Source: Gemmatimonadaceae bacterium
Lineage (GTDB): Bacteria > Gemmatimonadota > Gemmatimonadetes > Gemmatimonadales > Gemmatimonadaceae
Reading direction: 5' to 3'
Assembly (NCBI GenBank): GCA_014379705.1
Contig: JACMLI010000420.1
Coordinates: 1-30,750, forward strand
Length of the DNA stretch: 30,750 bases
Numbering within the stretch: the first letter of the stretch is position 1; each line of letters opens with the position of its first letter. The notes under the pieces are model-generated. The model did no database searches, was not told the origin of the DNA, and saw only the letters and a list, made by a program, of their open reading frames with translations. Shown here one piece after another: positions 1,884 to 30,446 of the stretch. Both the position numbers and the translations under genes were made by a program.

Positions 1884-4800
1884 ATGCAACGAAACTCTCG
1901 TTTGCTCAGCATGGCCCTCGGCGTCTTCGCCACGACGATGATGAGCGCATCATCGATCGCGGCGCAGGAGTCCGCGGGAACGATCGCCGGTCGGGTCATC
2001 GACCGGGGTACCACCCAGCCAATCAGCGAAGCGCAGGTCCAGATCGCGGCGAGCGTCCGCGGGGCTCGCACCACCGAGACGGGCGAATACCGCCTCACGG
2101 GCGTTCCCGCGGGCACGTACACGCTCCGCGTGGTGCGTATCGGCTACTCGCAGGAAACGCGTTCCATCACCGTGGTCGCCGGCCAGACCGTGACCGCCGA
2201 CTTCCAGCTCTCGGCCGCCGCCGTGCAGATCGACCAGGTGGTCGTGACGGCCACCGGCGAGACGCAGCGTCGCCGCGAGTCCGGGGCCACGACCACGACG
2301 ATCGCCACGGAAAACCTCCCGCTGCCGGCGGTGAACAGCTTCTCGAACGCGCTGTCGTCGCGCGCCGCGGGCCTCACCGTGATCAACGCGGGCGGTACCA
2401 CGGGGACGAACTCGCGCATCCGCATCCGCGGGTCGAACTCGATCAACCTGTCCAACGATCCGCTGATCATCATTGACGGCGTGCTCGTGTCCAACAACTC
2501 CGACAACTTCGGCGTCGGCCTCGGTGGCCAGACGACGTCGCGGTTCGACGACATCAACAACGAGGACATTGAGAATATCGAGGTGATCAAGGGCCCGGCG
2601 GGTACGGCGCTCTACGGATCGGCAGCCGCGAACGGCGTCATCCAGATCACCACCAAGCGGGGACGTGCCGGCAAGACGCGCTGGAACACGTATGCCGAAT
2701 ACGGCAACATCAAGGACTACACCGATTATCCGTCGAACTACCTGCAGGTCGGCCGCACGCCGGCCAACGCGATCACCACCTGCAACCTGGACTCGCGCGG
2801 GCGCGGCCTCTGTACGCCGATCGCGGATTCGCTGCTGTCGTGGAACCCGATCGAGAACGTGAGTCCCCTGCGGACCGGCTGGCGCGAGCAGTACGGCCTC
2901 AATGCGTCCGGTGGGGTGAATGAAGCCACGTACTACCTGGGCGGCGAATACGAGCGCGAGCAGGGCATCTACGAACCGAATCGCCTCCGTCGCATCAACT
3001 TCCGCACGAACGTGCGGGCGCAGCTCAAGAGCAACCTCGATGCGGCGATCACCATCGGGTACACGCGCTCCAAGAGCAACCTGCCGTTCAACGACAACAC
3101 CACGTTCGGCGCGATTTCGACGGGCCTGCTCGGCAAGGCCTACGACTGCTCGCTGACCACGTTCCGGACGAACACGCGTTGCGGCGCGGACTCGCTCTCC
3201 CGTGGCTATTTCACGGCGAATGTGCAGTCGACGGACTTCTTCGCGGTGGCCAACCAGCAGGACATCTCGCGCATCGTCATCGGCGGCAACGTGAACTACC
3301 AGCCGACGTCGTGGCTCCGCGGCGTGGGACGCGCTGGTGCGGACATCATCTCGCGCTACGACCAGCAGTTGATCCCGCCGAACAAGGTGGCGTTCAGCAC
3401 GGCGTCGCTCGAGGGCTCCCGCTTCAACAACCGCACCGAGACGCCGACGTTCAGCTCCAACGGCACGATGACGGCGTCGTTCAACCTGCTCGGTGGCGCC
3501 CTGACCACGCAGACCTCGGTCGGCGCCCAGATCGTCAACGAGATCAACCGCACCACCACCGCGACCGGCGCGGTCCTGACGCCGGGCACGGGCTCGCTCA
3601 ACGGCACCTCGGCGCGCTTCGCGGTGGGTGAGGCGAATTCGCAGGTCATTACCGTCGGCGGTTACGCCGAGGAGAAGCTCGCCTGGCGCGATCGCCTGTT
3701 CCTGACAGGCTCCGTGCGTGCGGACGACAACTCCAACTTCGGCGCCAAGCTCGGGCTCATCTACTATCCGTCGGTCAGCGCCTCGTGGGTGCTCTCCGAG
3801 GAGGCATGGTTCCCGAAGGCCGACTGGCTGAGCCAGTTCCGCATTCGTTCGGCGTACGGCAAGGCGGGCAACCGCCCGGGCTTCCGCCAGGCGAACACGT
3901 TCTTCTCCCCGGTCTCGGTGCGCCTCAATGGCGCGGACCTCCCGGCCGTGACGGTCGGTGGGGCCGGCAACGCCGACCTCAACCCCGAGATCTCCGAGGA
4001 ATTGGAAGGGGGCTTCGAGCTCTCCGCGTTCTCGGGCAAGCTGGGCATGTCGGCCACGTACTTCACCAAGACCACCAACGACGCCCTCGTGAGCCGCGTG
4101 CTCGCCCCGTCGTTAGGCAACGCGAACTCGCGCTTCGTGAACTTCGCCGAGGTCCGCAACAGCGGCATCGAGGCCGACTTCACCGTCGTGCCGTTGGAGG
4201 TCCGCAACCTCCGGTATGAACTGCAGGGCACCTACACGCAGCTGCAGAACCAGCTGATGGACCTCGGCACGGGCATCTCGCCGATCATCTTCGGCTTCAA
4301 CTCGTCGCAGCGGCACACCAAGGGCTCGCCCCTGGGCGCCTTCTACCTCCGCAACTACACCTTCGCGGACAAGGACGGCAACAACACGATCACGCGCGTC
4401 AACTGCCCGACGATCGGCGGCATCGCCAACCCGCAGGTCGCGGGCGGGCCGCAATGCGAAGTCACGCTCAGCGACACGGCGGTCTACCTCGGCCAGCCGC
4501 TGCCGCCCCGCGAGATCAACCTGAACCAGACGCTGACCCTGTTCCGCAACTTCCAGGTGACGGCGCTCCTCAACCACCGCGGGGGCCACAAGCTCTTCAA
4601 CTCCACGCGGGAGTTCCGTTGCTCGCAGTTCCGCAACTGCCAGGACATCATGGACCCGAGCGCGTCGCTCGAGGACCAGGCCAAGGTCATCGGTTCGCTG
4701 ATGGGCACCGTGCGCGGTTACGTCGAGGACGCGTCGTTCACGCGCCTGCGCGAGGTCTCGGCCACGTACAACGCGCCCGTGCAGTGGGCCCAGCGGCTCG

Positions 4801-4973
4801 GTCTCTCCACCCTCGGCCTGACGTTCGCCGGGCGTAACCTGGCGATCTGGACCGATTACACGGGCTTCGACCCGGAAGTGAACTCCAACGCGACCGCGCT
4901 GTTCTCGAGCGCCGACTTCCTGGCCCAGCCGCCGGTGCGGTACTTCGTGCTGCGCCTCAACGCCAACTTCTAA
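1884..4973 (+). CDS. SusC/RagA family TonB-dependent outer membrane transporter
   Basis: AGGAG RBS at 1873-1877 before ATG 1884. Signal peptide (..SIAA|QE), carboxypeptidase-regulatory-like N-domain, plug signature NEDIENIEVIKGPAGTALYGSAAANGVIQITTKRG, C-terminal Phe (LRLNANF). Confidence 0.95.
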   Translation: MQRNSRLLSMALGVFATTMMSASSIAAQESAGTIAGRVIDRGTTQPISEAQVQIAASVRGARTTETGEYRLTGVPAGTYTLRVVRIGYSQETRSITVVAGQTVTADFQLSAAAVQIDQVVVTATGETQRRRESGATTTTIATENLPLPAVNSFSNALSSRAAGLTVINAGGTTGTNSRIRIRGSNSINLSNDPLIIIDGVLVSNNSDNFGVGLGGQTTSRFDDINNEDIENIEVIKGPAGTALYGSAAANGVIQITTKRGRAGKTRWNTYAEYGNIKDYTDYPSNYLQVGRTPANAITTCNLDSRGRGLCTPIADSLLSWNPIENVSPLRTGWREQYGLNASGGVNEATYYLGGEYEREQGIYEPNRLRRINFRTNVRAQLKSNLDAAITIGYTRSKSNLPFNDNTTFGAISTGLLGKAYDCSLTTFRTNTRCGADSLSRGYFTANVQSTDFFAVANQQDISRIVIGGNVNYQPTSWLRGVGRAGADIISRYDQQLIPPNKVAFSTASLEGSRFNNRTETPTFSSNGTMTASFNLLGGALTTQTSVGAQIVNEINRTTTATGAVLTPGTGSLNGTSARFAVGEANSQVITVGGYAEEKLAWRDRLFLTGSVRADDNSNFGAKLGLIYYPSVSASWVLSEEAWFPKADWLSQFRIRSAYGKAGNRPGFRQANTFFSPVSVRLNGADLPAVTVGGAGNADLNPEISEELEGGFELSAFSGKLGMSATYFTKTTNDALVSRVLAPSLGNANSRFVNFAEVRNSGIEADFTVVPLEVRNLRYELQGTYTQLQNQLMDLGTGISPIIFGFNSSQRHTKGSPLGAFYLRNYTFADKDGNNTITRVNCPTIGGIANPQVAGGPQCEVTLSDTAVYLGQPLPPREINLNQTLTLFRNFQVTALLNHRGGHKLFNSTREFRCSQFRNCQDIMDPSASLEDQAKVIGSLMGTVRGYVEDASFTRLREVSATYNAPVQWAQRLGLSTLGLTFAGRNLAIWTDYTGFDPEVNSNATALFSSADFLAQPPVRYFVLRLNANF

Positions 4974-7055: not shown

Positions 7056-7448
7056 ATGGCTGAATCGCAGATCCGCGCCGTTGGCCGCCGCAAGGAGGCT
7101 GTCTGCCGCGTGTACATCAAGCCCGGGTCGGGCAAGTGGGACGTGAACGGTCGCACGTTAGGCGACTACTTCCCGCGCCCGTCGCTCGTCTCGTCGATCC
7201 AGCAGGCGTTCACCGCCACGGACTCGCTGGGCAAGTACGACGTCCGCGCGCGCGTCGAGGGGGGTGGCCTCACGGGGCAGGCCGGGGCGCTCCGCCTCGC
7301 CGTCGCCCGCTGCATGGTCGAGGTGGATGAGACCCATCGCCGCAAGCTGCGTGACATGGGCCTCCTCACCCGCGATGCCCGCGCCGTCGAGCGCAAGAAG
7401 CCCGGCCGCCCTGGCGCCCGCAAGCGCTTCCAGTTCTCCAAGCGCTAG
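7056..7448 (+). CDS. rpsI: 30S ribosomal protein S9
   Basis: GRRKEAVCRV, V.GGGLTGQAGA.R, LLTRDARAVERKKPG..GARKRFQFSKR. Confidence 0.99.
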   Translation: MAESQIRAVGRRKEAVCRVYIKPGSGKWDVNGRTLGDYFPRPSLVSSIQQAFTATDSLGKYDVRARVEGGGLTGQAGALRLAVARCMVEVDETHRRKLRDMGLLTRDARAVERKKPGRPGARKRFQFSKR

Positions 7449-8543: not shown

Positions 8544-8633
8544 ATGACGTTAGGCGCGGGGCCCACTGGCGGCGCCCCGCGCGGACCACGGGAGCGACGG
8601 CCCACCGGAGCCCCGTCCTGAACGCAGGACCCC

Positions 8634-9579: not shown

Positions 9580-9718
9580 ACGGGATGGACGAGATAGACG
9601 AGATAGACGGGATGGACGAAATCAAGGAGTGCAGGGCGCACGGGTCTCATGACTTGCGCGTACGGCGCTACGAGGGTTAGGCTCGCACGCAATCGACTAT
9701 CTCGTCCATCTCGTCCAC
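9576..9718. repeat. Inverted pair of 9-bp degenerate tandem repeats (element B)
   Basis: Left arm ATAGACGGG ATGGACGAG ATAGACGAG ATAGACGGG ATGGACGAA (9576-9620). Right arm GACTAT CTCGTCCAT CTCGTCCAC (9695-9718). Confidence 0.9.
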
Positions 9719-11850: not shown

Positions 11851-12980
11851 CCCGGGCCGGCGTTGCCATCCTCGGGGCCACGGGGTCGATCGGACGCTCT
11901 GCCGTGCGCGTGCTCAAGCGTCATCCGGAGCGCTTCGCCGCGCGTGCCCTCACCGCGCATTCCGCCCTCGACGACCTCGCGAAGTGCGCCGCGGCGCTCG
12001 ACGTGCCCTGGGTGGGGATCGTCGAGCCATCGGGGGAGGTGCCAGCCGGCTGGTGTCAGGGGCCGAGCGTCCTGACGACGGCGGCGACCCTTCCGGGTGT
12101 CGACATCGTCCTCAATGCCGTCGTCGGCGCCGCGGGCCTCGACGCGACCCTGGCGGCCCTCGGCGCGGGCAAGCGGGTGGCCCTCGCCAACAAGGAATCC
12201 CTGGTGGTCGCCGGGCAGCTCGTCATGGACGCCGCGCGAGCCGGGCAGGGAAGCGTCGTTCCCGTCGACTCCGAACACTCGGCAATCCTTCAATGCCTCG
12301 CCGGGCGCCCTGGTACCGAAGTCCGTCGGCTGATCCTGACGGCGTCGGGCGGCCCCTTCCGGACCTGGGACGCCGAACGCCTGCGCGCGGCCACCCTTGC
12401 CGACGCCCTGCAGCACCCCACGTGGCAGATGGGACGAAAGATCACGGTCGACAGTGCCACCCTGGCCAACAAGGCCATGGAGGTCATTGAGGCGCACTTC
12501 CTGTTCGGGGTGCCCTACGAGAACATCGAAGTCGTCGTGCACCCCCAGAGCATCGTGCACTCGATGGTGGAGTTCGTCGACGGGAGCGTCCTGGCCCAAC
12601 TCGGGGTTCCTTCGATGGAGCTACCGATCCTGTACGCGCTGACGCACCCTGACCGACTGGACGACACCGGGGTACCACGGTTCGACCCGGTGGGGGCATC
12701 GCCGCTGACGTTCGAGCCCGTGCGCCACGATGCTTTTCCGGCGCTGCAACTCGGGGTCGGTGCCGGGCGTAGGGGAGGCGCGGCTCCCGCGGTGTTCAAC
12801 GCGGCGAACGAACAGGCCGTCGCCCTTTTCCTCGATGGAAGGATCCAGTTTGGCGGCATTCCGTTGGCCATCAGCGCGGCGCTCGACGCGTTAGGCGGGA
12901 TGCCGGGTTCGACGCGTGACCAGTTGATGGCGGCCGACGCGGCCGCCAGGGACCTCGTTCGGGAACATTGCAGATGCTAG
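11847..12980 (+). CDS. dxr: 1-deoxy-D-xylulose-5-phosphate reductoisomerase (MEP pathway)
   Basis: ILGATGSIG, ALANKESLV, PVDSEHSA, LTASGGPFR, HPTWQMGRKITVDSAT; ATGA overlap with cdsA. Confidence 0.98.
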   Translation: MTRAGVAILGATGSIGRSAVRVLKRHPERFAARALTAHSALDDLAKCAAALDVPWVGIVEPSGEVPAGWCQGPSVLTTAATLPGVDIVLNAVVGAAGLDATLAALGAGKRVALANKESLVVAGQLVMDAARAGQGSVVPVDSEHSAILQCLAGRPGTEVRRLILTASGGPFRTWDAERLRAATLADALQHPTWQMGRKITVDSATLANKAMEVIEAHFLFGVPYENIEVVVHPQSIVHSMVEFVDGSVLAQLGVPSMELPILYALTHPDRLDDTGVPRFDPVGASPLTFEPVRHDAFPALQLGVGAGRRGGAAPAVFNAANEQAVALFLDGRIQFGGIPLAISAALDALGGMPGSTRDQLMAADAAARDLVREHCRC

Positions 12981-14562: not shown

Positions 14563-14566
14563 CTGC

Positions 14567-16216
14567 CTAACGCGCGTCGTCCTTCCCGTCGCAGATCAGG
14601 CTGATGAGGCGCGTCACCGGCCGCTCCACCGCAATCTGCACCTCCTGCTGCTCGTAGTCCTGGCAGGGTTTGTCCGCCGTGACGCGCAAGTCATACAAGC
14701 CCGTTGGGAGCACCAGGACTCCCGTCATGGGGAGTGGGCCTTCCTTGCGAACCCCGTCGCCCTGGATTTCATAACGAGCCCCTGACGGCAGCGGCGTGCC
14801 CCGAAGGCTGATCGACAGGGTGCCACAAGAACGCACGGGAAGTTGCACCCGTTGCGTTGCCCCGCTTCGCACCTGGATCGAACGCGTTTGCGATGCACTC
14901 TCACATCCATCGGGTGCCGTCACGGTCGCTCGCACCGTGTGCAGTCCGGGCTTCATCGTGTCCGCCGACCAGGCTCCATTTCCCACCGGCACGCCGTTCA
15001 CGGTGACGCTGGCGGCCTCCGGAGCCTCGATCGTCAGACGGGTGATGGGCCGACGAATCATCGACGTGTCGCCGCGCCGGATCGCTGCGATCACGGAGTC
15101 GATGGGGACCGGACGGGCACCGCTCAAGACGGTATCGGCGATTTTCGCGGTGAACACCTGGGTGGGGAGCGTTGGCGGGGGGAGCAGAGAGGCCGCCGGG
15201 CTGTTGCGCCGCGCCACGATCGGGAGCGCCGCGGCGGCGACCACGATTATCCTAAGCGCCGCCAGCGCCGCCCGTCGACCGCGACTCGCCTTGCGAGGGC
15301 GCTTCCCACCCAGGGCACGCTCGCGGACGGTCGGCGTCTCGGTCGGGGAGAGGAAAACACCCGAGGTGCCGAGCGAACCCCCGGCGCGCGGATTGGCCAG
15401 CACTTCATTCAACTCGTCCGCCAGCTGCTCGCCGGTTGCGGGGCGGTCGTCGGGGTGTTTGGCGAGGCAACGCAGGATCAGCCGCTCGAAGGCCGGCGAG
15501 ACGCTCGTGGTGATCGAGCGGGGGCTCGGTGGCGCGTCTTCGACGTGGGCCCTGGCAATCTCGTACCAGTCGTCCCCTTCAAACGGGAGGCGGCCCGTCG
15601 CGGAGCGGTACATGGAGACGCCGAGCGAGTAGATGTCTGCGCGACCGTCGAGGGGCTTGGCGCGGGCCTGTTCGGGGGCGAAGTACTGTGGCGTCCCGAC
15701 GACCATGTTCGTTCCCGTCTGCTGCGTGTAGCCGGAGACGGCGCGGGCGATACCGAAGTCCGCCACCACCGCATTCCCGTGGACGTCGAACAGGATGTTG
15801 TCGACCTTGATGTCCCGGTGGATTACCCCCTCGCGGTGGGCGAACCCGAGGGCGCGCGCCACATCGATCCCCACCTTGATGACGAACTCCTCCGCGAGGA
15901 AGGGCGTAGTGTCGAGCTTGTTCGCCAGCCCAGAGGGGAGGAAGTCCATGGCGAAGTAGACCGCGTCACCATCGCGGCCGACCTCGTAGATCTTGACGAT
16001 GTTTGGGTGGCGGAGTCGCGCCGCCGTCGACGCCTCCTTTCGGAAGCGATCCTCGAAGGTGGTATCACCCGCGAACTGCGGCTTGAGGACCTTGAGGGCG
16101 ACCGGGATCTCGAGCGTGGGGTCGTACCCGCGGTATACCCAGGCGAAGCCCCCCGAGCCGATCAGCTCCTCGACGCGGTACTTTCCGAGGGTTTTGCCGA
16201 GGTATCGTTCGGGCAC
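14567..16216 (-). CDS. Hanks-type membrane Ser/Thr protein kinase with an extracytoplasmic beta-rich domain
   Basis: IGSGGFAWVY, VALKVL, HRDIKVDN, DFGIARA, GTPQYFAPE, DIYSLG, RCLAKHP..RP; then one hydrophobic segment and a C-terminal PEGA-like region with cysteines. Confidence 0.93.
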   Translation of the reverse strand: MPERYLGKTLGKYRVEELIGSGGFAWVYRGYDPTLEIPVALKVLKPQFAGDTTFEDRFRKEASTAARLRHPNIVKIYEVGRDGDAVYFAMDFLPSGLANKLDTTPFLAEEFVIKVGIDVARALGFAHREGVIHRDIKVDNILFDVHGNAVVADFGIARAVSGYTQQTGTNMVVGTPQYFAPEQARAKPLDGRADIYSLGVSMYRSATGRLPFEGDDWYEIARAHVEDAPPSPRSITTSVSPAFERLILRCLAKHPDDRPATGEQLADELNEVLANPRAGGSLGTSGVFLSPTETPTVRERALGGKRPRKASRGRRAALAALRIIVVAAAALPIVARRNSPAASLLPPPTLPTQVFTAKIADTVLSGARPVPIDSVIAAIRRGDTSMIRRPITRLTIEAPEAASVTVNGVPVGNGAWSADTMKPGLHTVRATVTAPDGCESASQTRSIQVRSGATQRVQLPVRSCGTLSISLRGTPLPSGARYEIQGDGVRKEGPLPMTGVLVLPTGLYDLRVTADKPCQDYEQQEVQIAVERPVTRLISLICDGKDDAR

Positions 16217-16712: not shown

Positions 16713-18950
16713 ATGCAAAGAATCGAAAAGACCTTCGCGGGCCGCCCTCTGTCAATCGAAACGGGTCGGATGGCCAAGCAGGCCGCGGGGTCGGCGCTCG
16801 TGAAGTTCGGGGACACCATGGTCCTCGCTGCGGTCACCGTCAGCGACAACCAGAGCAACCTTCCTTTCTTCCCGCTCCTCGTCGAATACCGCGAGAAGAC
16901 GTACGCAGCGGGCAAGATCCCCGGTGGCTTCATCAAGCGTGAAGGTCGGCCGCACGATCATGAGATTCTCTCGGCACGCATCATCGATCGCTCGATCCGG
17001 CCGATGTTTCCGGAAGGCTTCAAGAACGAGGTGCAGGTCTACATCTACGTGATCTCGGCCGACCAGGAGAACGACGCCGACGTCCTCGGCCTCCTCGCCG
17101 CGTCGTTCGCCCTCAATGCCTCCAAGATTCCCTTCGCCACCCCGCTCGCCGGCGTCCGCGTCGGCCGCGTGCAGGAGAAGTGGATCCTCAACCCCACGTT
17201 CCAGCAGCTCGAATACAGCGACCTCGAGATCGTCGTTGCCGGCACGGCCGACTCGATCCTGATGGTCGAGGGCGGCGCGAATGAAGTGACCGAGGCCGAT
17301 GCGCTCGAGGCCCTCACCATCGGACACGCCGGCATCAAGGAACTCATCGGCTACCAGAACGAGCTGCTCGCCAAGGGCCGCACGGACAAGATGGAGTGGT
17401 CGAAGACTCCGGTGGCCGACGAGATCCTCGCGGCCGTGAAGAAGGAAGCCGAGGCCCGCATCGCGACGGCGCTCAACCAGAAGGACAAGGCCACGCGCGT
17501 GCAGGCGATCGAGAAGGTCAAGAAGGACGCGAAGGCCACGCTGGTCGCCGCCAACCCGGACTGGGCCCCCTTCGTCGGCTCCGTGCTCGATGACCTCGAG
17601 TATGTCGCCCTCCGCTCGCAGGTGCTCGACACGAAGAAGCGCGTCGACGGCCGCTCGTCGACCGAGGTGCGCGGAATTTCCATCGATACCGCTGTCCTGC
17701 CACGCGCACATGGCTCGGCGCTCTTCACGCGCGGCCAGACGCAGGCCCTCGTCGCCTGTACGCTAGGCACGGCCGCCGATGTCCAGCGCCTCGACTCGAT
17801 CCACGAGTCCGGGGAGTCGACGCAGTCGTTCATGCTCCACTACAACTTCCCGCCGTTCTCCACCGGTGAAGTGCGCCCGATGCGCGGCACCTCGCGCCGC
17901 GAGATCGGCCACGGCAACCTCGCCGAGCGGGCCCTGCAGGCTGTGCTCCCCGACTTCCAGGACTTCCCGTATACGATCCGCATCGTGTCCGACGTGCTCG
18001 AGTCCAACGGGTCGTCGTCCATGGCGTCGGTCTGCGGGGGTTCCCTGGCCTTGTTCGATGCCGGCGTGCCCACAAAGGCTGCGGTGGCCGGCGTGGCGAT
18101 GGGCCTGATCAAGGAAGGCGACAAGTACGCGATCCTGACCGACATCCTCGGCACCGAAGACCACCTCGGCGACATGGACTTCAAGGTCGCGGGGACCGAA
18201 AACGGGATCACCTCGATCCAGATGGACATCAAGATCCAGGGCCTCGACCTCGACATCATGCGCGAGGCGCTGGCACAGGCGCGCGAAGGCCGCCTGCACA
18301 TTCTCGGCGAGATGAAGAAGGCGTTGAGCGCTCCGAACGCGGACCTCTCGGCGTACGCCCCGCGCATCATCACGCTCAGCATCAACCCCGAAAAGATCGG
18401 CGACCTGATCGGACCCAAGGGCAAGACGATCCGCGGGATCCAGGAAGAGACGGGTGCCGAGCTCACGGTGGACGATTCGGGCCTCGTCACGATCGCGGCC
18501 GTCGGCGGCGAAGCGATGGAACGTGCTCGCCAGATGGTGCAGGCCATCACGGCCGAGCCGATCGTCGGTGAGACCTACGAAGGTGCGGTCAAGAGCATCA
18601 CGGCGTTCGGCGCGTTCATCGAGATCATGCCGGGCACCGAGGGCCTCCTCCACATCTCCGAGATGCGGCACACCCGCGTCGAGAAGACCGAGGATGTCGT
18701 CAAGAAGGGCGAGCGCGTCACGGTGAAGCTCATCGACCGTGATGAGCGCGGCCGCCTGCGCTTGTCCATGAAGGCGCTGCAGCCAAAGCCCGAAGGCATG
18801 ACCGAGGCCGAAGCGAACGCACCTGCGGGCGAGGGTGGCGCGAGTGAAGGTGCGTCCAACGGAGAAGGGTCCGAGGAACGCGAGCGCCGTCCGCGTCGCG
18901 AAGGTGGTGATCGCGGCGGACGCAGTGGCGGTGGGCGTGGGCGGAGGTGA
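16713..18950 (+). CDS. pnp: Polyribonucleotide nucleotidyltransferase (PNPase)
   Basis: IETGRMAKQA.GS, FFPL.V.Y.EK.YAAGKIPGGF.KREGRP, LPRAHGSALFTRGQTQ, FMLHYNFPPFSTGE, ESNGSSSMASVCG, GDMDFKVAGT; KH and S1 domains. Confidence 0.99.
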   Translation: MQRIEKTFAGRPLSIETGRMAKQAAGSALVKFGDTMVLAAVTVSDNQSNLPFFPLLVEYREKTYAAGKIPGGFIKREGRPHDHEILSARIIDRSIRPMFPEGFKNEVQVYIYVISADQENDADVLGLLAASFALNASKIPFATPLAGVRVGRVQEKWILNPTFQQLEYSDLEIVVAGTADSILMVEGGANEVTEADALEALTIGHAGIKELIGYQNELLAKGRTDKMEWSKTPVADEILAAVKKEAEARIATALNQKDKATRVQAIEKVKKDAKATLVAANPDWAPFVGSVLDDLEYVALRSQVLDTKKRVDGRSSTEVRGISIDTAVLPRAHGSALFTRGQTQALVACTLGTAADVQRLDSIHESGESTQSFMLHYNFPPFSTGEVRPMRGTSRREIGHGNLAERALQAVLPDFQDFPYTIRIVSDVLESNGSSSMASVCGGSLALFDAGVPTKAAVAGVAMGLIKEGDKYAILTDILGTEDHLGDMDFKVAGTENGITSIQMDIKIQGLDLDIMREALAQAREGRLHILGEMKKALSAPNADLSAYAPRIITLSINPEKIGDLIGPKGKTIRGIQEETGAELTVDDSGLVTIAAVGGEAMERARQMVQAITAEPIVGETYEGAVKSITAFGAFIEIMPGTEGLLHISEMRHTRVEKTEDVVKKGERVTVKLIDRDERGRLRLSMKALQPKPEGMTEAEANAPAGEGGASEGASNGEGSEERERRPRREGGDRGGRSGGGRGRR

Positions 18951-20233: not shown

Positions 20234-20257
20234 TTCCACCACCCGGACCTAACGAAC

Positions 20258-21373
20258 ATGCGCATCGGCGTACCGAAGGAGATCAAGACCAACGAGAACC
20301 GCATCGCCCTCGTCCCGGCGGGCGCCGAGGCCCTCGTGGCAGCGGGCCACCAGGTGGTGGTCGAGAAGGGCGGCGGTGATGGGAGTGGGTTCACCGACCA
20401 GGATTACATCTCGGTCGGCGCGTCCGTCGAGCCAAGCGTGGACGCGGTATGGGCCGGCGCAGACATGATCATCAAGGTGAAGGAGCCGATCGGGGTCGAG
20501 TGGCCCCGGATGAAGCGTGGCCAGGTGGTCTTCACGTACTTCCACTTCGCCGCCGATGAGCAGCTGACGCGCGCACACATGGCATCGGGCGCGACGTGCA
20601 TCGCATACGAGACGGTGGAACTCCCGCCGAGCGACCTGCCGCTGTTGATCCCGATGTCGGAAGTCGCCGGACGGATGGCGGTGCAGGAAGGGGCCAAGTA
20701 CCTGGAGAAGCTCTACGGCGGCCGTGGCGTGCTCCTCGGTGGCGTTCCGGGTGTCGCACCGGCCAAGGTCGTGATCCTTGGCGGCGGCATCGTCGGCATC
20801 AACGCCGCGAAGATGGCGGCGGGCATGGGCGCCAAGGTCGTGATCCTCGACATCTCGCTCGACCGCCTGCGCTACCTCTCGGACGTGATGCCCGCGAACG
20901 TTCAGCTGATCTACTCCAATCGCCACAACATCCTGGAGCAGATCGCGACGGCGGACCTGGTGGTGGGCGGCGTGCTGATCCCGGGCGCGAAGGCCCCGCG
21001 GCTGATCCGGCGCGAGGACCTCAAGCGGATGCAACCGGGCTCGGTGATCGTGGACGTGGCGATCGACCAGGGCGGGTGCGTGGAGACGATCAAGGCGACG
21101 ACGCACGAGAACCCGACGTACGTGGTCGATGGCGTGATCCACTATGGCGTGGCGAACATGCCGGGCGGCGTGCCGCGCACGTCGACGCTCGCCCTGACCA
21201 ACGCGACGCTGCCGTACGCGATGCAGCTGGCCAACAAGGGCTGGAAGCAGGCGCTGCGCGACAACCCGGCGCTGCTCAAGGGCCTGAACATGTTCGACGG
21301 CAAGGTGACGTATCCGGGCGTGGCGGAGGCGTTCGGGATGGAGTATCACGAGCCGGCGCAGTTCCTCGCGTAG
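20258..21373 (+). CDS. ald: Alanine dehydrogenase
   Basis: MRIGVPKEIKTNENRIAL.P, IKVKEP, LFTY-like VFTYFHFAA, PMSEVAGR, GGGIVG.NAAKMA.GMGA, VDVAIDQGGC, HYGVANMPG. Confidence 0.98.
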   Translation: MRIGVPKEIKTNENRIALVPAGAEALVAAGHQVVVEKGGGDGSGFTDQDYISVGASVEPSVDAVWAGADMIIKVKEPIGVEWPRMKRGQVVFTYFHFAADEQLTRAHMASGATCIAYETVELPPSDLPLLIPMSEVAGRMAVQEGAKYLEKLYGGRGVLLGGVPGVAPAKVVILGGGIVGINAAKMAAGMGAKVVILDISLDRLRYLSDVMPANVQLIYSNRHNILEQIATADLVVGGVLIPGAKAPRLIRREDLKRMQPGSVIVDVAIDQGGCVETIKATTHENPTYVVDGVIHYGVANMPGGVPRTSTLALTNATLPYAMQLANKGWKQALRDNPALLKGLNMFDGKVTYPGVAEAFGMEYHEPAQFLA

Positions 21374-21549: not shown

Positions 21550-21996
21550 ATGACCGTCCAGATCCTCCGCCTCCCCACCAACCCCGATCTTCCGCTCCCG
21601 GCCCGTCAAACCGCCCATTCCGCCGGCTACGACGTGTGCAGCGCGGAGCCCGACTTCACGCTGGCACCTAACGAGCGGCGCGCGGTGCCGACGGGCTTCG
21701 CGTTTGCGTTGCCCGCGGGGTTGGAGATGCAGGTGCGGCCGCGCTCCGGGCTCGCGCTCAAGCACGGCATCAGCGTGCCCAATGCGCCGGGCACCATCGA
21801 TCCGGACTATCGCGGGGAGCTCAAGGTGATCCTCATGAACCTCGGGGCCGAGCCGGTGCTCGTTAGGCGCGGGGATCGGATCGCCCAGCTCGTCTTCGCC
21901 CGCTTCGAAACCCCCGACCTCGCCGAGTCCGGGAGCCTCGACGCCACCGATCGCGGCGCGGGGGGCTTCGGCAGCACCGGCCTGCGGACATCCTGA
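21550..21996 (+). CDS. dut: dUTP diphosphatase
   Basis: [44 protein letters not shown] (dUTPase motifs 1-5). Confidence 0.98.
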
Positions 21997-23301: not shown

Positions 23302-24393
23302 ATGGCGCGTCCGGCACGGGCGAGCTCACGGGTCGACGCGGCGCTGCTGGTCGCCTGCACCCTGCTCGCCCTCCTCGCCATCGTCCTTCCCACGCCGACG
23401 CGGGACGCGATTGCCGGGGTTCTCCAGCGCACCTTCGCCGCCCCGGTTTTCGCGCTGCAGCTGCGGAGCGAACGGGCGCGCACCGCGCTGGCGGAACGTG
23501 AGCAGGTCGCGGCGCGCGTGGATTCCCTCGCGCTCCGCGTCGTCCAGCTGGGGCAGCTCGAAGCCGAGAACCTGCGGCTCCGCCAGCTCCTTGCTCTGGG
23601 CCACCGGGTGCAGCGCGGGTTCGTGCCGGCCGAAGGGCTGCATGGGCAGGGGATCGGCGAGAGCCATGCGCTCCTCCTGACCGTCGGCGCGAAGGCTGGC
23701 GTGGTCCCGCGCTCCGCGGTCGTGGCCCCGCAAGGCGTCGTTGGACTCGTCACGTCGGTCGGCAACACCACCAGCCAGGCGATCCTGTGGTCGCACCCCG
23801 ACTTTCGCGTCTCCGCCATGTCGGCCGATGGCGCCACGTTCGGCATCGTCACGCCGCACCTGAGTGGCAACGACGAGGCCTGCCGCGGGGCAGGGGAAGC
23901 GGCCTGCGCGGGTCCGGAGCGCATGCTCCTCGAGATGCGTGGAGTGGCCTTTCGCGATCCCCTCAAGCCGGGAACGCTGATCGCCTCGTCAGGCCTCGGC
24001 GGCGTGTTCCCACGCGGCATCCTGATTGGCACCGTGATCGGTGAACTCAAGACGACGGAGCAGTGGTCGCGCACGTACCTCCTCCGTCCATCGGTGCGCC
24101 CCCAGGACGTGTCGAACGTCATGGTGCTGTCACCCGTCCTTGTCACCGACAACCTCGCCGGCATGTGGGACACGGCGGGCGCGGGCGCGGCTGTCGTCGC
24201 GCGGGTCGTGGCGGCGGGTGACTCCCTGGCTCGTCGAGCCACCGCGGATTCCGCGGCCAGGCAGCGGGTGATTGACTCAACGGCCGCGGCACGTCTCGCC
24301 GCCGACAGTGTCGCCGCCGCTGCTGGGGTTGCCCCCCGTGACACGACGCGTGTCGCACCCGGAGTGCGGCGCGACACCGCCCGCCGCCCATGA
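23302..24393 (+). CDS. mreC: Rod shape-determining protein MreC with a low-complexity C-terminal tail
   Basis: Position after mreB; N-terminal TM, coiled coil (LEAENLRLRQLL), VV...GVVG.V, G.LIASSGLGGVFPRGILIG.V. Confidence 0.95.
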   Translation: MARPARASSRVDAALLVACTLLALLAIVLPTPTRDAIAGVLQRTFAAPVFALQLRSERARTALAEREQVAARVDSLALRVVQLGQLEAENLRLRQLLALGHRVQRGFVPAEGLHGQGIGESHALLLTVGAKAGVVPRSAVVAPQGVVGLVTSVGNTTSQAILWSHPDFRVSAMSADGATFGIVTPHLSGNDEACRGAGEAACAGPERMLLEMRGVAFRDPLKPGTLIASSGLGGVFPRGILIGTVIGELKTTEQWSRTYLLRPSVRPQDVSNVMVLSPVLVTDNLAGMWDTAGAGAAVVARVVAAGDSLARRATADSAARQRVIDSTAAARLAADSVAAAAGVAPRDTTRVAPGVRRDTARRP

Positions 24394-24878: not shown

Positions 24879-26643
24879 GCTTCCACCCAAACGATGTACA
24901 GCGCCGCGGGCGCGTGGCCGCCACGGTGGTCCTGCTTACCGTCGGCGTGCTCGCCTCGGCGTTCTTCCGCGCGCAGGTGCTCAACTCGGCCCGGTATCGC
25001 CTCTCGTCGGAGCGCAACCGGCTGCGCGAGGTCCCGATCCCCGCGGCGCGCGGGATCATCTACGACCGGCATGGCGAGGTGATCGCCGAAAACGTGCCGG
25101 GGTACTCGGTGTCGCTGCTCGGACCGTCGGCGGACTCGTTGCGGGCCACGCTGACGCGCCTGACGAGCATCATCGCGTTCTCCCCCGAGGACATCGACGA
25201 GGCCGTGCGTCGCTATCGGCGGGAGCCCAACCGGCCCACGGTGGTGCTGGCCGACGCGTCATTCGACCAGGTGTCGGTGCTCGAGGAGCACCGCGTGGAG
25301 TTCCCGAGCCTGATCATTCAATCGGCACCGAAGCGCTACTACCCGGATGGCCCGGCCGTCGCCGCGTTCACGGGCTATACCGGCGAGATCTCCGAGAAGG
25401 AGCTGACGCTGCCGCAATTCGAGGGCTACAAGAGCGGCATGGAACTGGGAAGGGCGGGCTCGAAAAGCAGTACGAGACGGAACTGCGCGGACGCGAAGGG
25501 AGCCGTTTCGTCGAAGTCGATGCGCGCGGACGCGTCGTGCGCGACCAGGCCGACCGTCCGGACGTGCTCCCCGTGGCAGGGCAGGCACTGCGCACGAACA
25601 TCGACCTCGACCTGCAACGCTTCGTGTCGAACTACCTCGGCGACACCTTGGTTGCCGGAGTGGTCGCGCTCGACCCGACGACCGGCGCCGTGCTGGCGCT
25701 GCACAGCTCCCCGTCCTTCGATCCGAACCGATTCATTGGCGGCGTGCCGACCAGTTACTACAAGATGCTGCACGACGACCCCCGGCAACCTCTGTACAAC
25801 AAGGCGATGCAGGGCCGGTATCCGCCGGCGTCGACGTTCAAGCTGGCGACTGCAGCCATCGCGCTCCAGGAAGGGATTGCCACGTTCGACACGCACATGG
25901 AGCGCACGTGCAACGGGGGCTACCAGTTCGGGTCGCGCTACTGGAAATGCTGGGACAAGAAGGGCCACGGCAACCTGAACCTCACGCAGGCGATCGCGAA
26001 GTCGTGCGATACGTACTTCTACCAGCTCGGGCTCCGCATCACGTTGTCGCGACTCCTCGCGGGGGGCGTGTCGCTCAAGATGAACGAGCGCTCCGGGATC
26101 GACCTGCCGAATGAAGTGGCCCCCCGGTGGCCCGATGCGCCGGCCTACCTCGACCGGGTGTTCGGCAAGGGGAAGTGGTCCAATGGCGAGACGCTCAACC
26201 TCTCGATCGGCCAGGGCTACAATACCCAAACCGTGCTGAACATGGCGCGCTTCTACACGGCGCTGGCCACCGACGGACGTTCCGCGCGCCCCGAAGTGGT
26301 CGCGCGCTCGCCGGAGCGCACGCAGATCATGAACCTCACCCCGCAGCAACTGGCCGGGCTTCGCGCGGCGATGGGTGACGTGGTGTCGGGGCGCGGCACG
26401 GCAGGGAGCGCGGCGATCGAGGGGGTGCAGCTGGCAGGCAAGACCGGCACGGCGCAGAACGAGACGGCCAAGGACCACGCCTGGTTCGTCGGCTTCGCGC
26501 CGCAGGAGGCGCCGAAGATCGTGGTCGCCGTGGTCCTGTGGCAGGGCGAGCACGGCTACGCGGCGGCGCGCATCGCGTCGAAGGTCATCTCCCACTACCT
26601 CAAGCGGCCGGCGATCGAGCCGGTGAACGTGGAGGGGGATTGA
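24875..26643 (+). CDS. mrdA: Penicillin-binding protein 2 with a one-base frameshift near 25448-25451
   Basis: The N-half (IPAARGIIYDRHG..IAEN, RYYP) is in the frame of ORF 24713..25978. The C-half (GLEKQYE..LRG, STFK, KSCD, GKTGTAQ, HAWF) is in the -1 frame, ORF 25537..26643. One extra base at CTGGG^AAG restores LGKGGLEKQY and a 589-aa protein. Confidence 0.93.
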
Positions 26644-28308: not shown

Positions 28309-29172
28309 ATGGCTTGGTTTCGAAAGGAGAAGAAAGCCCGCCAACCCAGACGTGAGCGCCTCGAAATACCGGCGGACGCCTGGGAGAAGTGCGAGGCATG
28401 CGGGCATACGGACATCCGGGAGAAATTCGCCCGGAATCTCAACGTCTGCCCCAGTTGCGACTACCACCGTCGAATTCGTGCCCTGGAGTACGTCCAGATC
28501 ATCATGGACGACAATTCCTGGGAAGAGACCGACGCCGACCTGCGTTCGACCGATCCCCTCGGATTCCCCGACTACGCTGCGCGCCTGAAGAAGGCCCGGA
28601 CCAACGCCGGCGAGATGGATGCGATCCTGACGGTGGCGGGGAAACTCGGAGAGATGCCAGTGAACCTCGGGGTCATGGACTTTGCCTTCATGGGCGGTTC
28701 GATGGGCTCCGTGGTCGGCGAAAAGATCGCGCGGCTCGCCCAGCGTTCCCTGGAGCGAAAGCACCCGCTGATCGTCGTGTCCGCTTCCGGCGGGGCGCGG
28801 ATGCAGGAAGGCATCCTGTCGCTCATGCAGATGGGGAAGGTATCGGCGGTGCTGTCGCAGCTCGCCGATCGCCGCATCCCCTACGTATCCGTGCTGACGA
28901 ACCCGACCACGGGAGGCGTGAGCGCCAGCTACGCCATGCTCGGCGACGCGATCCTCGCTGAACCGGGTGCCGTGATTGGCTTCGCGGGCCCGCGCGTGAT
29001 CAAGCAGACGCTCGGCCAGGACCTTCCCGAGGGCTTTCAGACGGCCGAGTTCCTCCTCGACCACGGAATGCTCGACCTCGTGGCGCATCGCAAGGAACTC
29101 AAGCAGACGTTAGGCAGGCTCCTGCGTCACATGAGCGGCAAGCCCGCCGCGGCCGGATGGGCGACGAGCTGA
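28309..29172 (+). CDS. accD: Acetyl-CoA carboxylase carboxyltransferase subunit beta
   Basis: C4 zinc finger WEKCEAC..VCPSC, DFAFMGGSMGSVVGEKI, SGGARMQEG..SLMQM, PTTGGVSASYAMLGD, GFAGPRVI, FQTAEFLL.HG. Start MAWFRKEKK at 28309. Confidence 0.99.
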   Translation: MAWFRKEKKARQPRRERLEIPADAWEKCEACGHTDIREKFARNLNVCPSCDYHRRIRALEYVQIIMDDNSWEETDADLRSTDPLGFPDYAARLKKARTNAGEMDAILTVAGKLGEMPVNLGVMDFAFMGGSMGSVVGEKIARLAQRSLERKHPLIVVSASGGARMQEGILSLMQMGKVSAVLSQLADRRIPYVSVLTNPTTGGVSASYAMLGDAILAEPGAVIGFAGPRVIKQTLGQDLPEGFQTAEFLLDHGMLDLVAHRKELKQTLGRLLRHMSGKPAAAGWATS

Positions 29173-30446
29173 CGGGCTACAAGCGCGCCCTCGACGCGCT
29201 TTTCGAACGGACAACCGGCGTCAGCAAGTTCGGCCTCGAACGCACGGAGGCGTTCCTCAAGGCGCTTGGGAATCCGCAGCACATGCTGCGCGTCCTGCAT
29301 GTCGCCGGGACCAACGGGAAGGGCAGCGTATGCGCGACCCTCGAGGCGGTCTTGCGATCGCAGGGCCTGCGCGTCGGCAAATACACGTCGCCGCACCTCG
29401 TCGACTTTCGCGAGCGGTTCCTCGTGAACGGCGCCGCGATCGACCCGGCGTGGGTGGTCGACTTCCTTGGCCGGTGGACGCCGACAGTCGAGAAGCTCGG
29501 GGTCACCTTCTTCGAGGCCACCACGGCGATGGCGTTCGCCTGGTTCGCGAGGCGCGAGGTCGACATTGCGGTCGTCGAGACGGGGCTCGGCGGGCGGCTT
29601 GATTCCACCAACGTCGTCCGGCCCCTGGTCGCCACCGTGACGTCGATCGGGATCGATCATGTGGAGCAGCTGGGACGCACGCGTGAAGCCATTGCGGGAG
29701 AGAAGGCGGGGATCTTCAAGTCACGCGCTGCCGCCGTGATCGGGGAGCCCGACGCGGCCATCGCAGCACTCCTCGCGGGCCACGCGCGCGCCCGCGGGGC
29801 GTCACCGATTGTCGATGCGTGGCGCACGATGCCCCCGTCGGCCATCACCCTGAGTGACGGCGGTACGCGCTTCCAGATCACCACCGACACGGGGATTCGG
29901 CAGGTGCACACGCCGCTCGCGGGGGCGCACCAGGCCTCCAACACGCTCGTGGCGCTCCTCACCCTCCGCGAGGCGGGCGCCGCCTGGTGGCCAGGCTGGG
30001 ATGCGGCCATCCGTTCCCTCGCTCGCGTTAGGCTCCCGGGGCGCTTCCACCGGGTCGGGCGATGGATCTTCGACGTGGCGCACAATCCGGACGGGGCGCG
30101 CGTGCTCGTGCACACGCTGCGCGACGTCGGTGTGCCATCGCCGGTGACCGCGGTGGTGTGCGTGCTCAACGACAAGGACTGGCGTGGGGTCCTCGAAACG
30201 CTCGCGACTCAGGTCGATCGCCTGATCCTGACCAATGCGCCCACGGCACCGGCGAGCCGCGCGTGGGACCATAGCGAGGTCGGGGCGTTCGCATCACAGC
30301 TCGGTGTTCCAGCGACCCTGGAGCCCGATTTCGACGCGGCCCTCAAGGCGGCTGACGAGGCGGGAGGCACCGCCCTCGTGACCGGCTCATTCCACACCGT
30401 CGGCGACGCCATGGCTCGCTTGCAGGTAAGTCCTCTAGCCGACTAG
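29157..30446 (+). CDS. folC: Bifunctional folylpolyglutamate synthase/dihydrofolate synthase
   Basis: HVAGTNGKGS, YTSPHL..FRER, TFFE..TA.A, VETGLGGRLDSTN, IG.DH...LG, DVAHNPDG; the accD-folC order is conserved. Confidence 0.97.
   Translation: MGDELTGYKRALDALFERTTGVSKFGLERTEAFLKALGNPQHMLRVLHVAGTNGKGSVCATLEAVLRSQGLRVGKYTSPHLVDFRERFLVNGAAIDPAWVVDFLGRWTPTVEKLGVTFFEATTAMAFAWFARREVDIAVVETGLGGRLDSTNVVRPLVATVTSIGIDHVEQLGRTREAIAGEKAGIFKSRAAAVIGEPDAAIAALLAGHARARGASPIVDAWRTMPPSAITLSDGGTRFQITTDTGIRQVHTPLAGAHQASNTLVALLTLREAGAAWWPGWDAAIRSLARVRLPGRFHRVGRWIFDVAHNPDGARVLVHTLRDVGVPSPVTAVVCVLNDKDWRGVLETLATQVDRLILTNAPTAPASRAWDHSEVGAFASQLGVPATLEPDFDAALKAADEAGGTALVTGSFHTVGDAMARLQVSPLAD

Follow-up and report, generated by a model that had tools for sequence, protein, structure and literature searches.

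The window (the whole 30,750-nucleotide stretch analyzed here, from a soil bacterium of the Gemmatimonadaceae) carries genes that the preliminary description had named as those of SusC/RagA, ribosomal proteins S9 and S2, Dxr, a Ser/Thr kinase, dUTPase, AccD, FolC, and alanine dehydrogenase, and NCBIfam upheld these names. Eight perfect copies of the octamer CGTTAGGC (word 1) lie in and between these genes, all where they had first been described (Table 1). Dinucleotide-preserving shuffles gave 0.42 expected copies and never more than 4; for CGTTAGGY, 10 were seen against 0.66 expected. Recounting returned the same 13 TTAGG/CCTAA pentamers, with CG before 10 of them. We also verified that xCG-TTA-GGC accounts for four of the six TTA codons in the window, that dut and folC contain GTT-AGG, and that one GGTTAGGC is present.

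Table 1. Copies of word 1, its one-off variants, and the second word in the window
Motif	Positions	Strand	Location
CGTTAGGC	4111..4118	+	SusC/RagA gene (1785-4973), TCG-TTA-GGC (S-L-G)
CGTTAGGC	7156..7163	+	rpsI, ACG-TTA-GGC (T-L-G)
CGTTAGGC	8548..8555	+	intergenic, 5 bp past rpsB stop
CGTTAGGC	12889..12896	+	dxr, GCG-TTA-GGC (A-L-G)
CGTTAGGC	14565..14572	-	TAG is the Ser/Thr kinase gene stop codon (CGT-TAG-GC)
CGTTAGGC	21861..21868	+	dut, rarer phase xxC-GTT-AGG-C (V-R)
CGTTAGGC	29108..29115	+	accD, ACG-TTA-GGC
CGTTAGGC	30026..30033	+	folC, phase xxC-GTT-AGG-C
one-off CGTTAGGT	20247..20254	-	intergenic, upstream of alanine dehydrogenase gene
one-off CGTTAGGT	21666..21673	-	dut, antisense
one-off GGTTAGGC	9675..9682	+	
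second word CTCGTCAGGC	23985..23994	+	
second word CTCGTCAGGC	881..890	-	GCCTGACGAG on + strand
second word CTCGTCAGGC	25158..25167	-	GCCTGACGAG on + strand

Enrichment of the word in the genome

The over-representation claimed for the window holds for the whole genome (5.04 Mb, 67.5% GC), in which CGTTAGGC is the most over-represented octamer. It occurs 1282 times (626 on + and 656 on -), against 72 copies expected from a Markov-1 model and 42 to 43 from Markov-2/3 models. Coding DNA holds 960 copies, compared with 47.1 +/- 5.0 after within-gene synonymous shuffling, so that the observed/expected ratio under a codon-preserving null is about 20 rather than near 1. The one-off variant CGTTAGGT is 4.9-fold enriched genome-wide; GGTTAGGC is not (41 versus 45 expected). 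We found no paper on the CGTTAGGC word in the literature.

The enrichment is independent of strand and reading frame. Density is the same in intergenic and coding DNA, and 18.8% of sense [SPTA]LG tripeptides and 22.5% of antisense xPN[VADEG] are written with the word. TTA makes up 45% of the Leu codons in xCG-Leu-GGC versus 0.4% elsewhere. The word supplies TAG and TAA stops too, and 94 called genes genome-wide end as CGT-TAG-GC. These observations bear out the earlier proposal that selection or drive acts on the DNA word and not on the protein.

Second word, dialects, and spacing

A second, 10-letter word, CTCGTCAGGC (word 2), occurs 392 times in coding DNA versus 18.5 +/- 3.6 under the codon-preserving null (21-fold). 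Both forms of CGTYAGGC are enriched, the T form at 1282 copies versus 43 to 72 expected and the C form (CGTCAGGC) at 1128 versus 490 to 555, the latter only behind a CT prefix (12-fold; GT, 3-fold; other prefixes, ~1-fold). The abundances of CGTTAGGC and CTCGTCAGGC co-vary over 31 genomes of relatives, one of which (G015) has word 2 only. Five Chthoniobacterales genomes use the dialect TCGTTAGGC, with 2900 to 5200 copies per genome, and in their copies T is needed at -1 (87 to 92%). A purine is preferred at +8 in both phyla, and the flanks hold no information beyond -2/-1 and +8. These patterns are best read as one reader whose site, (C)(T)CGTYAGGC, is degenerate. Neisseriaceae DUS dialects reportedly behave in the same way.

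Copies of the word avoid one another. In genome G000 the density of pairs relative to the null was 0.05, 0.26, 0.43, and 0.52 below 100, 200, 300, and 500 bp; at greater distances it was about 1. Close pairs were depleted in either orientation (opposite-strand, 0.42 of null; same-strand, 0.35). The avoidance extends to copies of word 1 and word 2 within 200 bp of each other (z = -3.7, against -1.7 to +1.3 for five control words). Avoidance was repeated in G014, with 8 versus 35 adjacent spacings below 100 bp, so the exclusion zone (<500 bp) holds in two Gemmatimonadaceae genomes. In these genomes neighboring copies look redundant. In G316, a Chthoniobacterales genome, there is no such zone and spacing follows a Poisson pattern (CV 1.01). 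Inverted pairs of the terminator type are nearly absent (2 pairs).

Occurrence in relatives and phages

The word is found in Gemmatimonadaceae, in unrelated Verrucomicrobiota, and in some phages. As the preliminary description had supposed, it is lineage specific: occurrence is patchy over about 12 genera in three families, and a single genus spans 4000 versus 66 copies. Among the word-rich genomes searched, density varies about 10-fold; the extremes are one copy every 800 bp and one every 8 kb.

Sites are partially conserved between G000 and G004 (78.9% DNA identity), with turnover: 28 are shared, 50 are found only in G000, and 16 only in G004, against an estimated chance re-occupation of ~13 to 19%. 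Where a site is not shared, its counterpart most often differs from the word by one or two transitions. The rpsI site has the same codons in G001 and G014, and 12 other genomes have CTC, CTG, or CTT at the conserved tripeptide. The dxr site recurs in G003, G004, and G005, and G014 has the one-off GCG-TTA-GGT.

True phage contigs are 14- to 37-fold enriched (6 versus 0.16, 8 versus 0.32, and 14 versus 0.99) and come to a density like that of the hosts, using the rare codons that the hosts use. Phage genes, a DNA polymerase gene among them, are rewritten with TTA, CTA, and CCT. One such contig has a T7-like replication module (helicase, exonuclease, gp2.5-type SSB, DNA polymerase, and primase).

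A proposed molecular drive and alternative explanations

Of the options first listed for the octamer, a DUS-like or HIP1-like signal remains. The reading that we favor, with a probability of about 0.4, is a molecular drive that stems from a single degenerate reader of DNA, with a DNA-uptake tag as its most likely form; that the reader acts at uptake is what we infer. A sequence-specific double-stranded DNA reader with the site given above would confer a transmission advantage on word-bearing DNA. Competent cells would preferentially bind and import word-bearing fragments, and homologous recombination would then swap out untagged alleles. Because of this replacement, synonymous substitutions generating the word (CTG to TTG to TTA, CCN to CCT, a stop to CGT-TAG) would spread despite their codon cost. 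The reader would be easily gained and lost, probably via horizontal transfer. Per-site selection would be hard put to maintain thousands of weak sites, and drive is the demonstrated cause of the USS and DUS patterns.

The word is most like the "self tags" found in bacteria that import their own DNA. Like the DUS of Neisseriaceae (whose GCCGTCTGAA core has dialects and is recognized by the minor pilin ComP), it is short and nonpalindromic, has thousands of copies on both strands without polarity, places coding copies in the least costly frames, has lineage dialects one or two positions apart, and keeps part of its sites between species. Unlike the DUS, the word has an 8- to 10-bp core, belongs to a different phylum and is common to a second, is patchy even within a genus, is enriched rather than poor in phage contigs, and almost never forms the inverted pairs common for Neisseria DUS. 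As with the USS of Pasteurellaceae (AAGTGCGGT and ACAAGCGGT cores), frame preference is strong and comes from common tripeptides, spacing is more even than chance (here in G000 and G014), one-off variants are enriched, and there are two word subtypes; unlike the USS, the word has no AT-rich flanking segments, and its spacing is random in the Chthoniobacterales genome.

In favor of uptake, the genome has the hardware, namely, ComEC, a ComEA-type HhH domain, and 8 pilin-like genes, some of them FimT/GspH-like. Against it, the word-poor genome G008 has ComEC and ComEA equally, no ComP_DUS homologue scored above the cut-off, and in a test of five pilins none distinguished word-rich genomes from word-poor ones.

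Several further observations count against an uptake tag. Uptake drive has no obvious route to a phage, if virulent; G316 lacks the exclusion zone, and terminator-type pairs are scarce; and patchiness on the scale seen within one genus and across two phyla is far above that of DUS or USS.

The strongest competitor, to which we give about half the weight of the uptake reading, is an intracellular writing drive, in which a word-binding protein would make mismatch repair or gene conversion favor whichever strand has the perfect word. All DNA that replicates or recombines in the cell, that of phages included, would then drift to the word, by a mechanism of the type invoked for HIP1. The rewritten phage genes (with TTA, CTA, and CCT), the Poisson spacing in G316, the near-miss counterparts of unshared sites, and a labile, phylum-crossing distribution as expected of a single mobile gene all agree with it. 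However, site-by-site action does not predict a 500-bp exclusion that ignores orientation and extends between words, a phage with its own polymerase is independent of host replication, and Vsr was found in only 4 of the 31 genomes, 3 of them word-poor. To our knowledge, no enzyme corrects toward an 8- to 10-bp word at every position.

Somewhat less probable still is a protective self tag, by which an intracellular nuclease or defense system would spare, or stop on, word-bearing DNA. The logic would be that of Chi with a different enzyme and orientation ignored, and chromosomes and successful phages would be selected to carry the word. The phage enrichment, the even spacing in G000 and G014, and the equal strand numbers, as two-ended breaks require, fit this idea. 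Like Chi, the word is short, asymmetric, and over-represented, and carrying Chi can benefit phages. But opposite-strand neighbors are depleted like same-strand ones, which a strand-read signal does not predict, and selection site by site could hardly sustain up to ~6400 copies, each at the cost of a rare codon. The enrichment of known Chi sites is only few-fold, and they are skewed; the word is ~20-fold enriched, lacks polarity, and forces rare codons. None of the 31 genomes yielded RecC, and none of five searched yielded AddB (alpha type; the five include the word-rich G010 and G014, as well as G004 and the word-poor G008), which speaks against a RecBCD/AddAB version of the Chi suggested earlier.

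A directly selected binding site, at regular intervals, for a nucleoid-associated or chromosome-organizing protein is improbable. It would account for the orientation independence and minimum spacing in G000 and G014, but not for patchiness even in one genus, the random spacing in G316, or the ~10-fold density range, and selection on single sites is too weak to keep up thousands of them.

We consider it quite unlikely that the word is an orphan or restriction-linked DNA methyltransferase site that would be enriched via methylation-linked repair, as Elhai proposed for HIP1. The case for this would be that analogy and the C/T alternative at position 4. Cyanobacterial HIP1 (GCGATCGC) is likewise an octamer found once per 0.3 to 4 kb, imposed on coding DNA against codon preference, and patchy among related lineages; however, it is a palindrome containing a methyltransferase site, and the word is asymmetric. 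Because both the C and T forms are enriched, deamination of one into the other cannot be the cause. Repair that acts on a single position cannot account for enrichment at all eight, and Vsr shows no correlation with word abundance over the 31 genomes.

GTTAGGC does equal the integron core GTTRRRY, as had been pointed out, and GTT is the IntI crossover triplet. Cassette arrays of relatives (G021 contigs C95, C80, and C43 and G019 contig C3) have attC sites whose 3' end is exactly the octamer, with one copy per ~550 bp, all on one strand, and most copies in relatives without the genome-wide signal are such ends. Genomic GWT sites can also receive cassettes (bioRxiv 10.1101/2022.09.11.507474). 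Nevertheless, it is very doubtful that an integron integrase or another tyrosine recombinase targets the word (as an attG- or attC R'-like site), and this reading is largely refuted as the cause. IntI does not track the word, being above the cut-off in 19 of 31 genomes, word-rich and word-poor alike, and absent or fragmented in G010 and G014, which are word-rich; the copies in G000 are solitary, lie in conserved genes, and have no attC-like flanks; the co-varying word 2 has GTC, against the GWT rule; and sites were born by synonymous point changes, not insertion.

A strand-polar chromosome signal (KOPS/AIMS) or classical Chi is the least probable of all; polarity at the level of KOPS is refuted, and a weak leading-strand preference of up to ~1.7-fold may still be allowed. 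The word shows neither replication polarity nor an association with GC skew. The + and - strand classes do not differ significantly in occupancy (14.5% versus 8.6%), and word 2 is distributed 12:13 by strand over one 317-kb replichore. The 7:1 ratio in the window arises because 24 of 25 called genes are on + and [SPTA]-L-G is ~5 times commoner than x-P-N-[VADEG]. Gene orientation likewise accounts for the same-strand fraction of adjacent CGTTAGGC sites (0.553 genome-wide) and for the 43:16 ratio on G004 contig C14, where genes are 170:66.

Abundance and coding context of the octamer

The window is contig C600 of an assembly of 5.04 Mb (758 contigs, 74% complete, 67.5% GC), here called G000, and its best DNA matches were Gemmatimonadaceae MAGs with 72-80% identity over 1-3 kb. 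The preliminary description had reported eight perfect copies of CGTTAGGC (word 1) in the window; all are where it placed them, whereas dinucleotide shuffles gave 0.42. For CGTTAGGY, with Y the last position, 10 were seen and 0.66 expected. Its other counts also held. There are 13 TTAGG/CCTAA pentamers, with CG ahead of 10 of them; xCG-TTA-GGC accounts for four of the six TTA codons; GTT-AGG occurs in dut and folC; and the gene names agree with NCBIfam matches.

Across G000 we found 1282 copies of word 1 (626 on the + strand and 656 on the − strand), compared to expectations of 72 (Markov-1) and 42-43 (Markov-2/3). It ranked first among octamers under every Markov model except that of maximal order; the ratio of 1.01 given by that model arises only because the 7-mers within the word are equally enriched. 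The codon-preserving shuffle, which had been named in advance as the decisive check, left the claim standing: coding DNA held 960 copies, but shuffling synonymous codons inside each of the 3613 called genes gave 47.1 ± 5.0, and resampling codons from the genome pool gave 36.8 ± 7.1. The enrichment is real and large, and the Markov and codon-shuffle nulls rule out an artefact of composition or codon usage. The flanks of 1269 copies carried information only as a weak preference at −2/−1 and a purine at +8; therefore, word 1 is not a piece of a longer repeat. A larger repeat or mobile element around it was rejected on the same grounds and because intergenic copies share no context.

Most copies in G000 read xCG-TTA-GGC in the sense direction ([SPTA]-L-G, 731 copies) or G-CCT-AAC-G in the antisense direction (x-P-N-[VADEG], 171 copies). 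The second phase contributed 34 sense (V-R) and 24 antisense ([CSRG]-L-T) copies, and 215 were intergenic; 94 genes end in CGT-TAG-GC and 24 in GCC-TAA-CG. Word 1 contains 58% of the genome's TTA codons. TTA is the commonest Leu codon in the context xCG-Leu-GGC (731 of 1625) versus 0.4% elsewhere, and in the antisense context CCT spells 39% of Pro codons, versus 7% elsewhere. Occupancy of compatible tripeptides was 18.8% for sense and 22.5% for antisense, so the 4:1 ratio of sense to antisense copies reflects the greater number of sense-compatible peptides. This equal occupancy, and an intergenic density equal to the coding density, rule out a transcription-strand or RNA-level signal.

The phases of G000 were not filled alike. 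Occupancy was 19-22% in the phase that puts codon third positions on motif bases 1, 4, and 7, but the remaining open phase reached just 1.1-1.4%, though one transition suffices to turn CTG into CTA. The relative G014 and G316, a Chthoniobacterales genome, filled all four phases more evenly than G000 did.

A second word, dialects, and spacing

The C form of the octamer, CGTCAGGC, was enriched in G000 only as the 10-mer CTCGTCAGGC (word 2), with 468 copies versus 38 expected (12-fold); the prefix GT gave 3-fold enrichment and the rest about 1-fold. Against codon shuffles, word 2 numbered 392 versus 18.5 ± 3.6, about 20-fold, as did word 1. It occurs in all frames, in both orientations, and in intergenic DNA too, forces the rare AGG codon, and has three copies in the window. 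The counts of the two words co-vary over 31 relatives, both being high in G000-G006, G010, G014, and G030; G015 has only word 2 (116 copies, versus 30 of word 1). In Chthoniobacterales, where word 2 is rare, the form is a 9-mer, TCGTTAGGC, T standing at −1 in 87-92% of copies. A purine is favoured at +8 in both phyla. Judged from these sequences, the simplest reading would be that the dialects belong to one reader family with a degenerate site, (C)(T)CGTYAGGC, whose positions would be weighted differently by lineage. The word is imposed at the level of DNA, with one degenerate candidate reader as its driver.

We compared the spacing of copies with a null in which the same number of sites was drawn at random from all compatible tripeptides. 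The observed/null ratio for pairs of word 1 in G000 was 0.05 at <100 bp, 0.26 at 100-200 bp, 0.43 at 200-300 bp, 0.52 at 300-500 bp, and ∼1 at >500 bp. Close pairs were depleted both on the same strand (22 versus 63.7) and on opposite strands (10 versus 23.9), and also between word 1 and word 2 (11 versus 30 pairs within 200 bp; z = −3.7); five control words gave z values of −1.7 to +1.3. In G014, which has one copy per 810 bp, the depletion was of shorter range (8 versus 35 adjacent spacings of <100 bp). Therefore, neighbouring copies act as redundant in Gemmatimonadaceae in any orientation or dialect, consistent with a per-fragment benefit that saturates. An exclusion zone fails as a general property in G316, where the spacing of 402 copies over 310 kb is Poisson (CV, 1.01).

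Turnover of sites and phylogenetic range

The conserved T-L-G of rpsI is spelled ACG-TTA-GGC in G000, G001, and G014, and with CTC, CTG, or CTT in 12 others; GCG-TTA-GGC for A-L-G in dxr is common to G000, G003, G004, and G005. In a 240-kb alignment of G000 and G004 (78.9% identity), 28 sites were shared, 50 were found only in G000, and 16 only in G004. This sharing, 36-64%, is above the 13-19% expected under independent occupation, and where a site was not shared, the other genome has an ordinary synonymous spelling (CGCTGGGC, CGCTCGGC, or the TTG intermediate). Sites are therefore both kept and turned over.

In a survey of the phylum (301 genomes, 127 genera), high counts were confined to families f1 (genera g1, g32, g36, g38, g39, g41, and g42, plus g5 and g9 in the first sample), f2 (one genus, g69), and f3 (one genus, g20); no genome of families f4-f12 in this survey had a high count. 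When 185,579 species genomes were scanned, many Chthoniobacterales (Verrucomicrobiota) MAGs matched; five of these had 2884-5186 copies each, equally on the two strands. The word is thus lineage specific, as had been proposed, with a patchy range in f1-f3 plus Chthoniobacterales. In genus g39, two genomes have 3896 (G235) and 4141 (G292) copies versus 66 in G288, and of two sister genera, one is word-rich (G010, 605 copies) and the other word-poor (G008, 28 copies). Such sharp contrasts make phyletic profiling feasible. A tree of seven concatenated proteins placed G010 as the sister of G008 and, with full support, united G014 and genus g1 in a group that G015 joined weakly (support, 0.30). Several gains or losses are therefore needed. 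G013, an unpublished genome, is one word-poor row among the relatives and supports no claim.

Candidate readers and mechanisms

The best-supported mechanism, to which we assign a probability of about 0.4, is that the word may be a DNA-uptake tag. It is favoured because uptake is the sole demonstrated cause of patterns like this and would explain the independence of strand and frame, the dialects, and the redundancy of neighbours. The defining feature of DUS and USS is that word-bearing DNA is preferentially bound and imported by competent cells. Like them, the word has hundreds to thousands of copies above the codon-aware expectation (960 versus 47.1 ± 5), is equal on both strands (626:656) without replication or transcription polarity, and has lineage dialects (CGTTAGGC; CTCGTCAGGC, the only form in G015; and TCGTTAGGC in Chthoniobacterales). 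Competence machinery is a further likeness, with ComEC, a ComEA-type HhH domain, and pilins present in G000, but ComEC and ComEA also occur in word-poor G008, so competence genes do not discriminate.

The dedicated DUS receptor of Neisseriaceae is a ComP-type minor pilin. In five word-rich genomes, matches to ComP_DUS (PF16732) reached 19-22 bits at most, under the 27.3-bit cut-off, and a reader from this family was rejected. G000 has eight pilin-like genes; we looked for five of them in other genomes, and none splits word-rich from word-poor by its presence. Homologues of a FimT/GspH-like pilin occur in 29 of the 31 genomes. A FimU/GspH-like pilin is in word-poor G008, G017, and G020 and absent from word-poor G288 and word-rich G030, and a second pilin-like gene at L058 is also found in word-poor genomes. 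The pilins L060 and L061 had a full-length match in G014 alone of five genomes searched and none in word-rich G010 and G030. Within genus g39, the FimU/GspH-like minor pilin is in G235 and G292 and not in G288. Separately, G000 contains a frame joining ComEA and PilB domains that may be a true fusion or reflect the loss of a stop codon; the ComEA-like protein of G008 is separate and has 350 aa.

Intracellular drives, taken together, are a doubtful but serious alternative, kept alive by phage enrichment, Poisson spacing in Chthoniobacterales, and extreme patchiness. A search of IMG/VR for pairs of copies separated by 470-499 bp yielded many-copy contigs, three of them true phages: L127 (large terminase; 24 copies in 11.8 kb), L091 (tail proteins and tape measure; 9 copies in 11.6 kb), and L138 (helicase, exonuclease, gp2.5-like SSB, DNA polymerase, and primase; 9 copies in 14.8 kb). 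Compared to codon resampling, these three contigs had 14 versus 0.99, 8 versus 0.32, and 6 versus 0.16 copies, a 14- to 37-fold enrichment. The copies within phage genes use TTA, CTA, and CCT spellings, as in hosts, and follow the Gemmatimonadaceae dialect. Phages and newly acquired DNA usually contain few uptake sequences, and the enrichment in these contigs is contrary to what an uptake tag would lead one to expect, although temperate phages would be subject to their host's drive too.

In an unlikely but conceivable reading that sets uptake aside, the word would be the footprint of a new kind of horizontally mobile reader, which would write or protect its own site of 8-10 bp within the cell, on chromosomes and phages of two phyla. 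That site is also the universal integron attC end, and cassette traffic and tag may be coupled.

The preliminary description had suggested an integron recombinase target. The attC, attI, and attG sites are recombined by IntI at a GTT (GWT) triplet and are tied to the presence of the integrase. In word-poor relatives, most copies of word 1 are indeed 3′ ends of attC sites in cassette arrays (contigs C95, C80, and C43 of G021 and C3 of G019), with one copy per ∼550 bp on a single strand and conserved upstream arms. IntI scored above the cut-off in 19 of 31 genomes of the order irrespective of the word, no attC flanks were found around word 1 in G000, and word 2 has GTC, without the crossover triplet. 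Since IntI does not track the genome-wide signal and word 2 has GTC, the integrase was rejected as the cause. A tag that matches the canonical cassette end might conceivably assist cassette capture. In Vibrio, chromosomal integrons are fed by transformation (PMC12614218), and in Neisseria an ICE appears to integrate at DUS (PMC7371117). Six further loci, L073 (IMGVR_UViG_3300023212_000464), L101, L216, L218, L225 (Lysobacter niastensis), and L303, have 6-15 octamers, all or nearly all on one strand, at 41-66% GC; these are probably integron cassette arrays of other taxa and on viral-labelled contigs.

The KOPS- or Chi-like polarity that had also been raised did not materialize. In G000, 55.3% of neighbouring copies of word 1 share a strand, the value predicted by gene co-orientation (0.66) and an 80% sense share, and there was no link between GC skew and strand. 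On a 317-kb contig of G004, almost wholly one replichore, word 1 was distributed 43:16 and genes 170:66; occupancy of the + and − strand classes (14.5% versus 8.6%) was not significantly different, and word 2 was distributed 12:13. Replication polarity was therefore rejected. KOPS and other architecture-imparting sequences are strongly co-oriented with replication and switch at ori and dif, whereas word 1 has no strong co-orientation. Chi, which has a leading-strand skew, is read by RecBCD or AddAB; RecC was found in 0 of 31 genomes and AddB in none of four searched (G004, G014, G010, and G008), and no skew was seen beyond that of gene orientation; a RecBCD/AddAB Chi was therefore rejected. 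HIP1 differs in being a palindromic octamer that contains a methyltransferase site; word 1 is non-palindromic. Very-short-patch repair, in which the Vsr endonuclease is paired with a cytosine methyltransferase and the T form is depleted and the C form enriched, was rejected because Vsr was uncorrelated with the word (4 of 31 genomes, 3 of them word-poor) and both forms are enriched.

In the literature, we found the octamer only in primers or unrelated contexts, no paper describing the word, and none tying uptake sequences to Gemmatimonadota or Verrucomicrobiota. To our knowledge, genome-saturating self words of known function are confined to Neisseriaceae and Pasteurellaceae, cyanobacterial HIP1 has had no explanation in 30 years, and natural transformation in these abundant soil phyla is essentially unstudied. 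The word is a third, very strong case. Its two co-varying forms and cross-phylum dialect outline the binding logic of the reader, and its carriage by phages makes the mechanism more approachable. If it is an uptake tag, soil lineages that carry it would exchange genes preferentially with one another, across phyla, and these bacteria could be made genetically tractable in a simple manner; if not, there would be a new molecular drive. Either way, the word is a practical marker for phage host assignment and binning.

Locations of pilins, fused frames, cassette arrays, and other features
Feature	Location	Description
FimT/GspH-like pilin	L059:1995-2435	
FimU/GspH-like pilin	L058:2431-3018	
Pilin	L058:2045-2431	
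ComEA-PilB frame	L064:3-1628, − strand (G000:C583)	ComEA-type HHH_3 (residues 110-170) in-frame with PilB domains MshEN and T2SSE; no intervening stop
Homologous frame	L067:1-2454, − strand (G004:C15)	818 aa, open-ended, HhH match
Cassette arrays	L001/L002 (G021:C95:1-30000), L003 (G019:C3), L005 (G021:C80), L006 (G021:C43)	One attC per ∼500-650 bp; ends ...TTAGGCGC(n5)CGTTAGGC, all same strand
Partial IntI	G021:C80:6419-7300	
GGACTAGTGG, examples	G000 C159:∼20750-20850 and ∼24000-24080, C45:∼8200, C278:∼1850	77 matches in G000, 73 intergenic
Short gene	Window 16400-16575	Skipped by the GC3-based gene caller; TAG stop at ∼16573-16575
ORF	Window 16713-18950	745 aa, next after the short gene
ACTAGT	Window, overlapping the stop at ∼16573-16575	Single occurrence in the window

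After the word, the most over-represented 10-mers of G000 come from tandem arrays of an 8-bp unit, GGACTAGT (variants GGGCTAGT and GGACTCGT). In the window, we take the short gene, by eye, to resemble ribosomal protein S15, and the ORF that follows it may encode polynucleotide phosphorylase.
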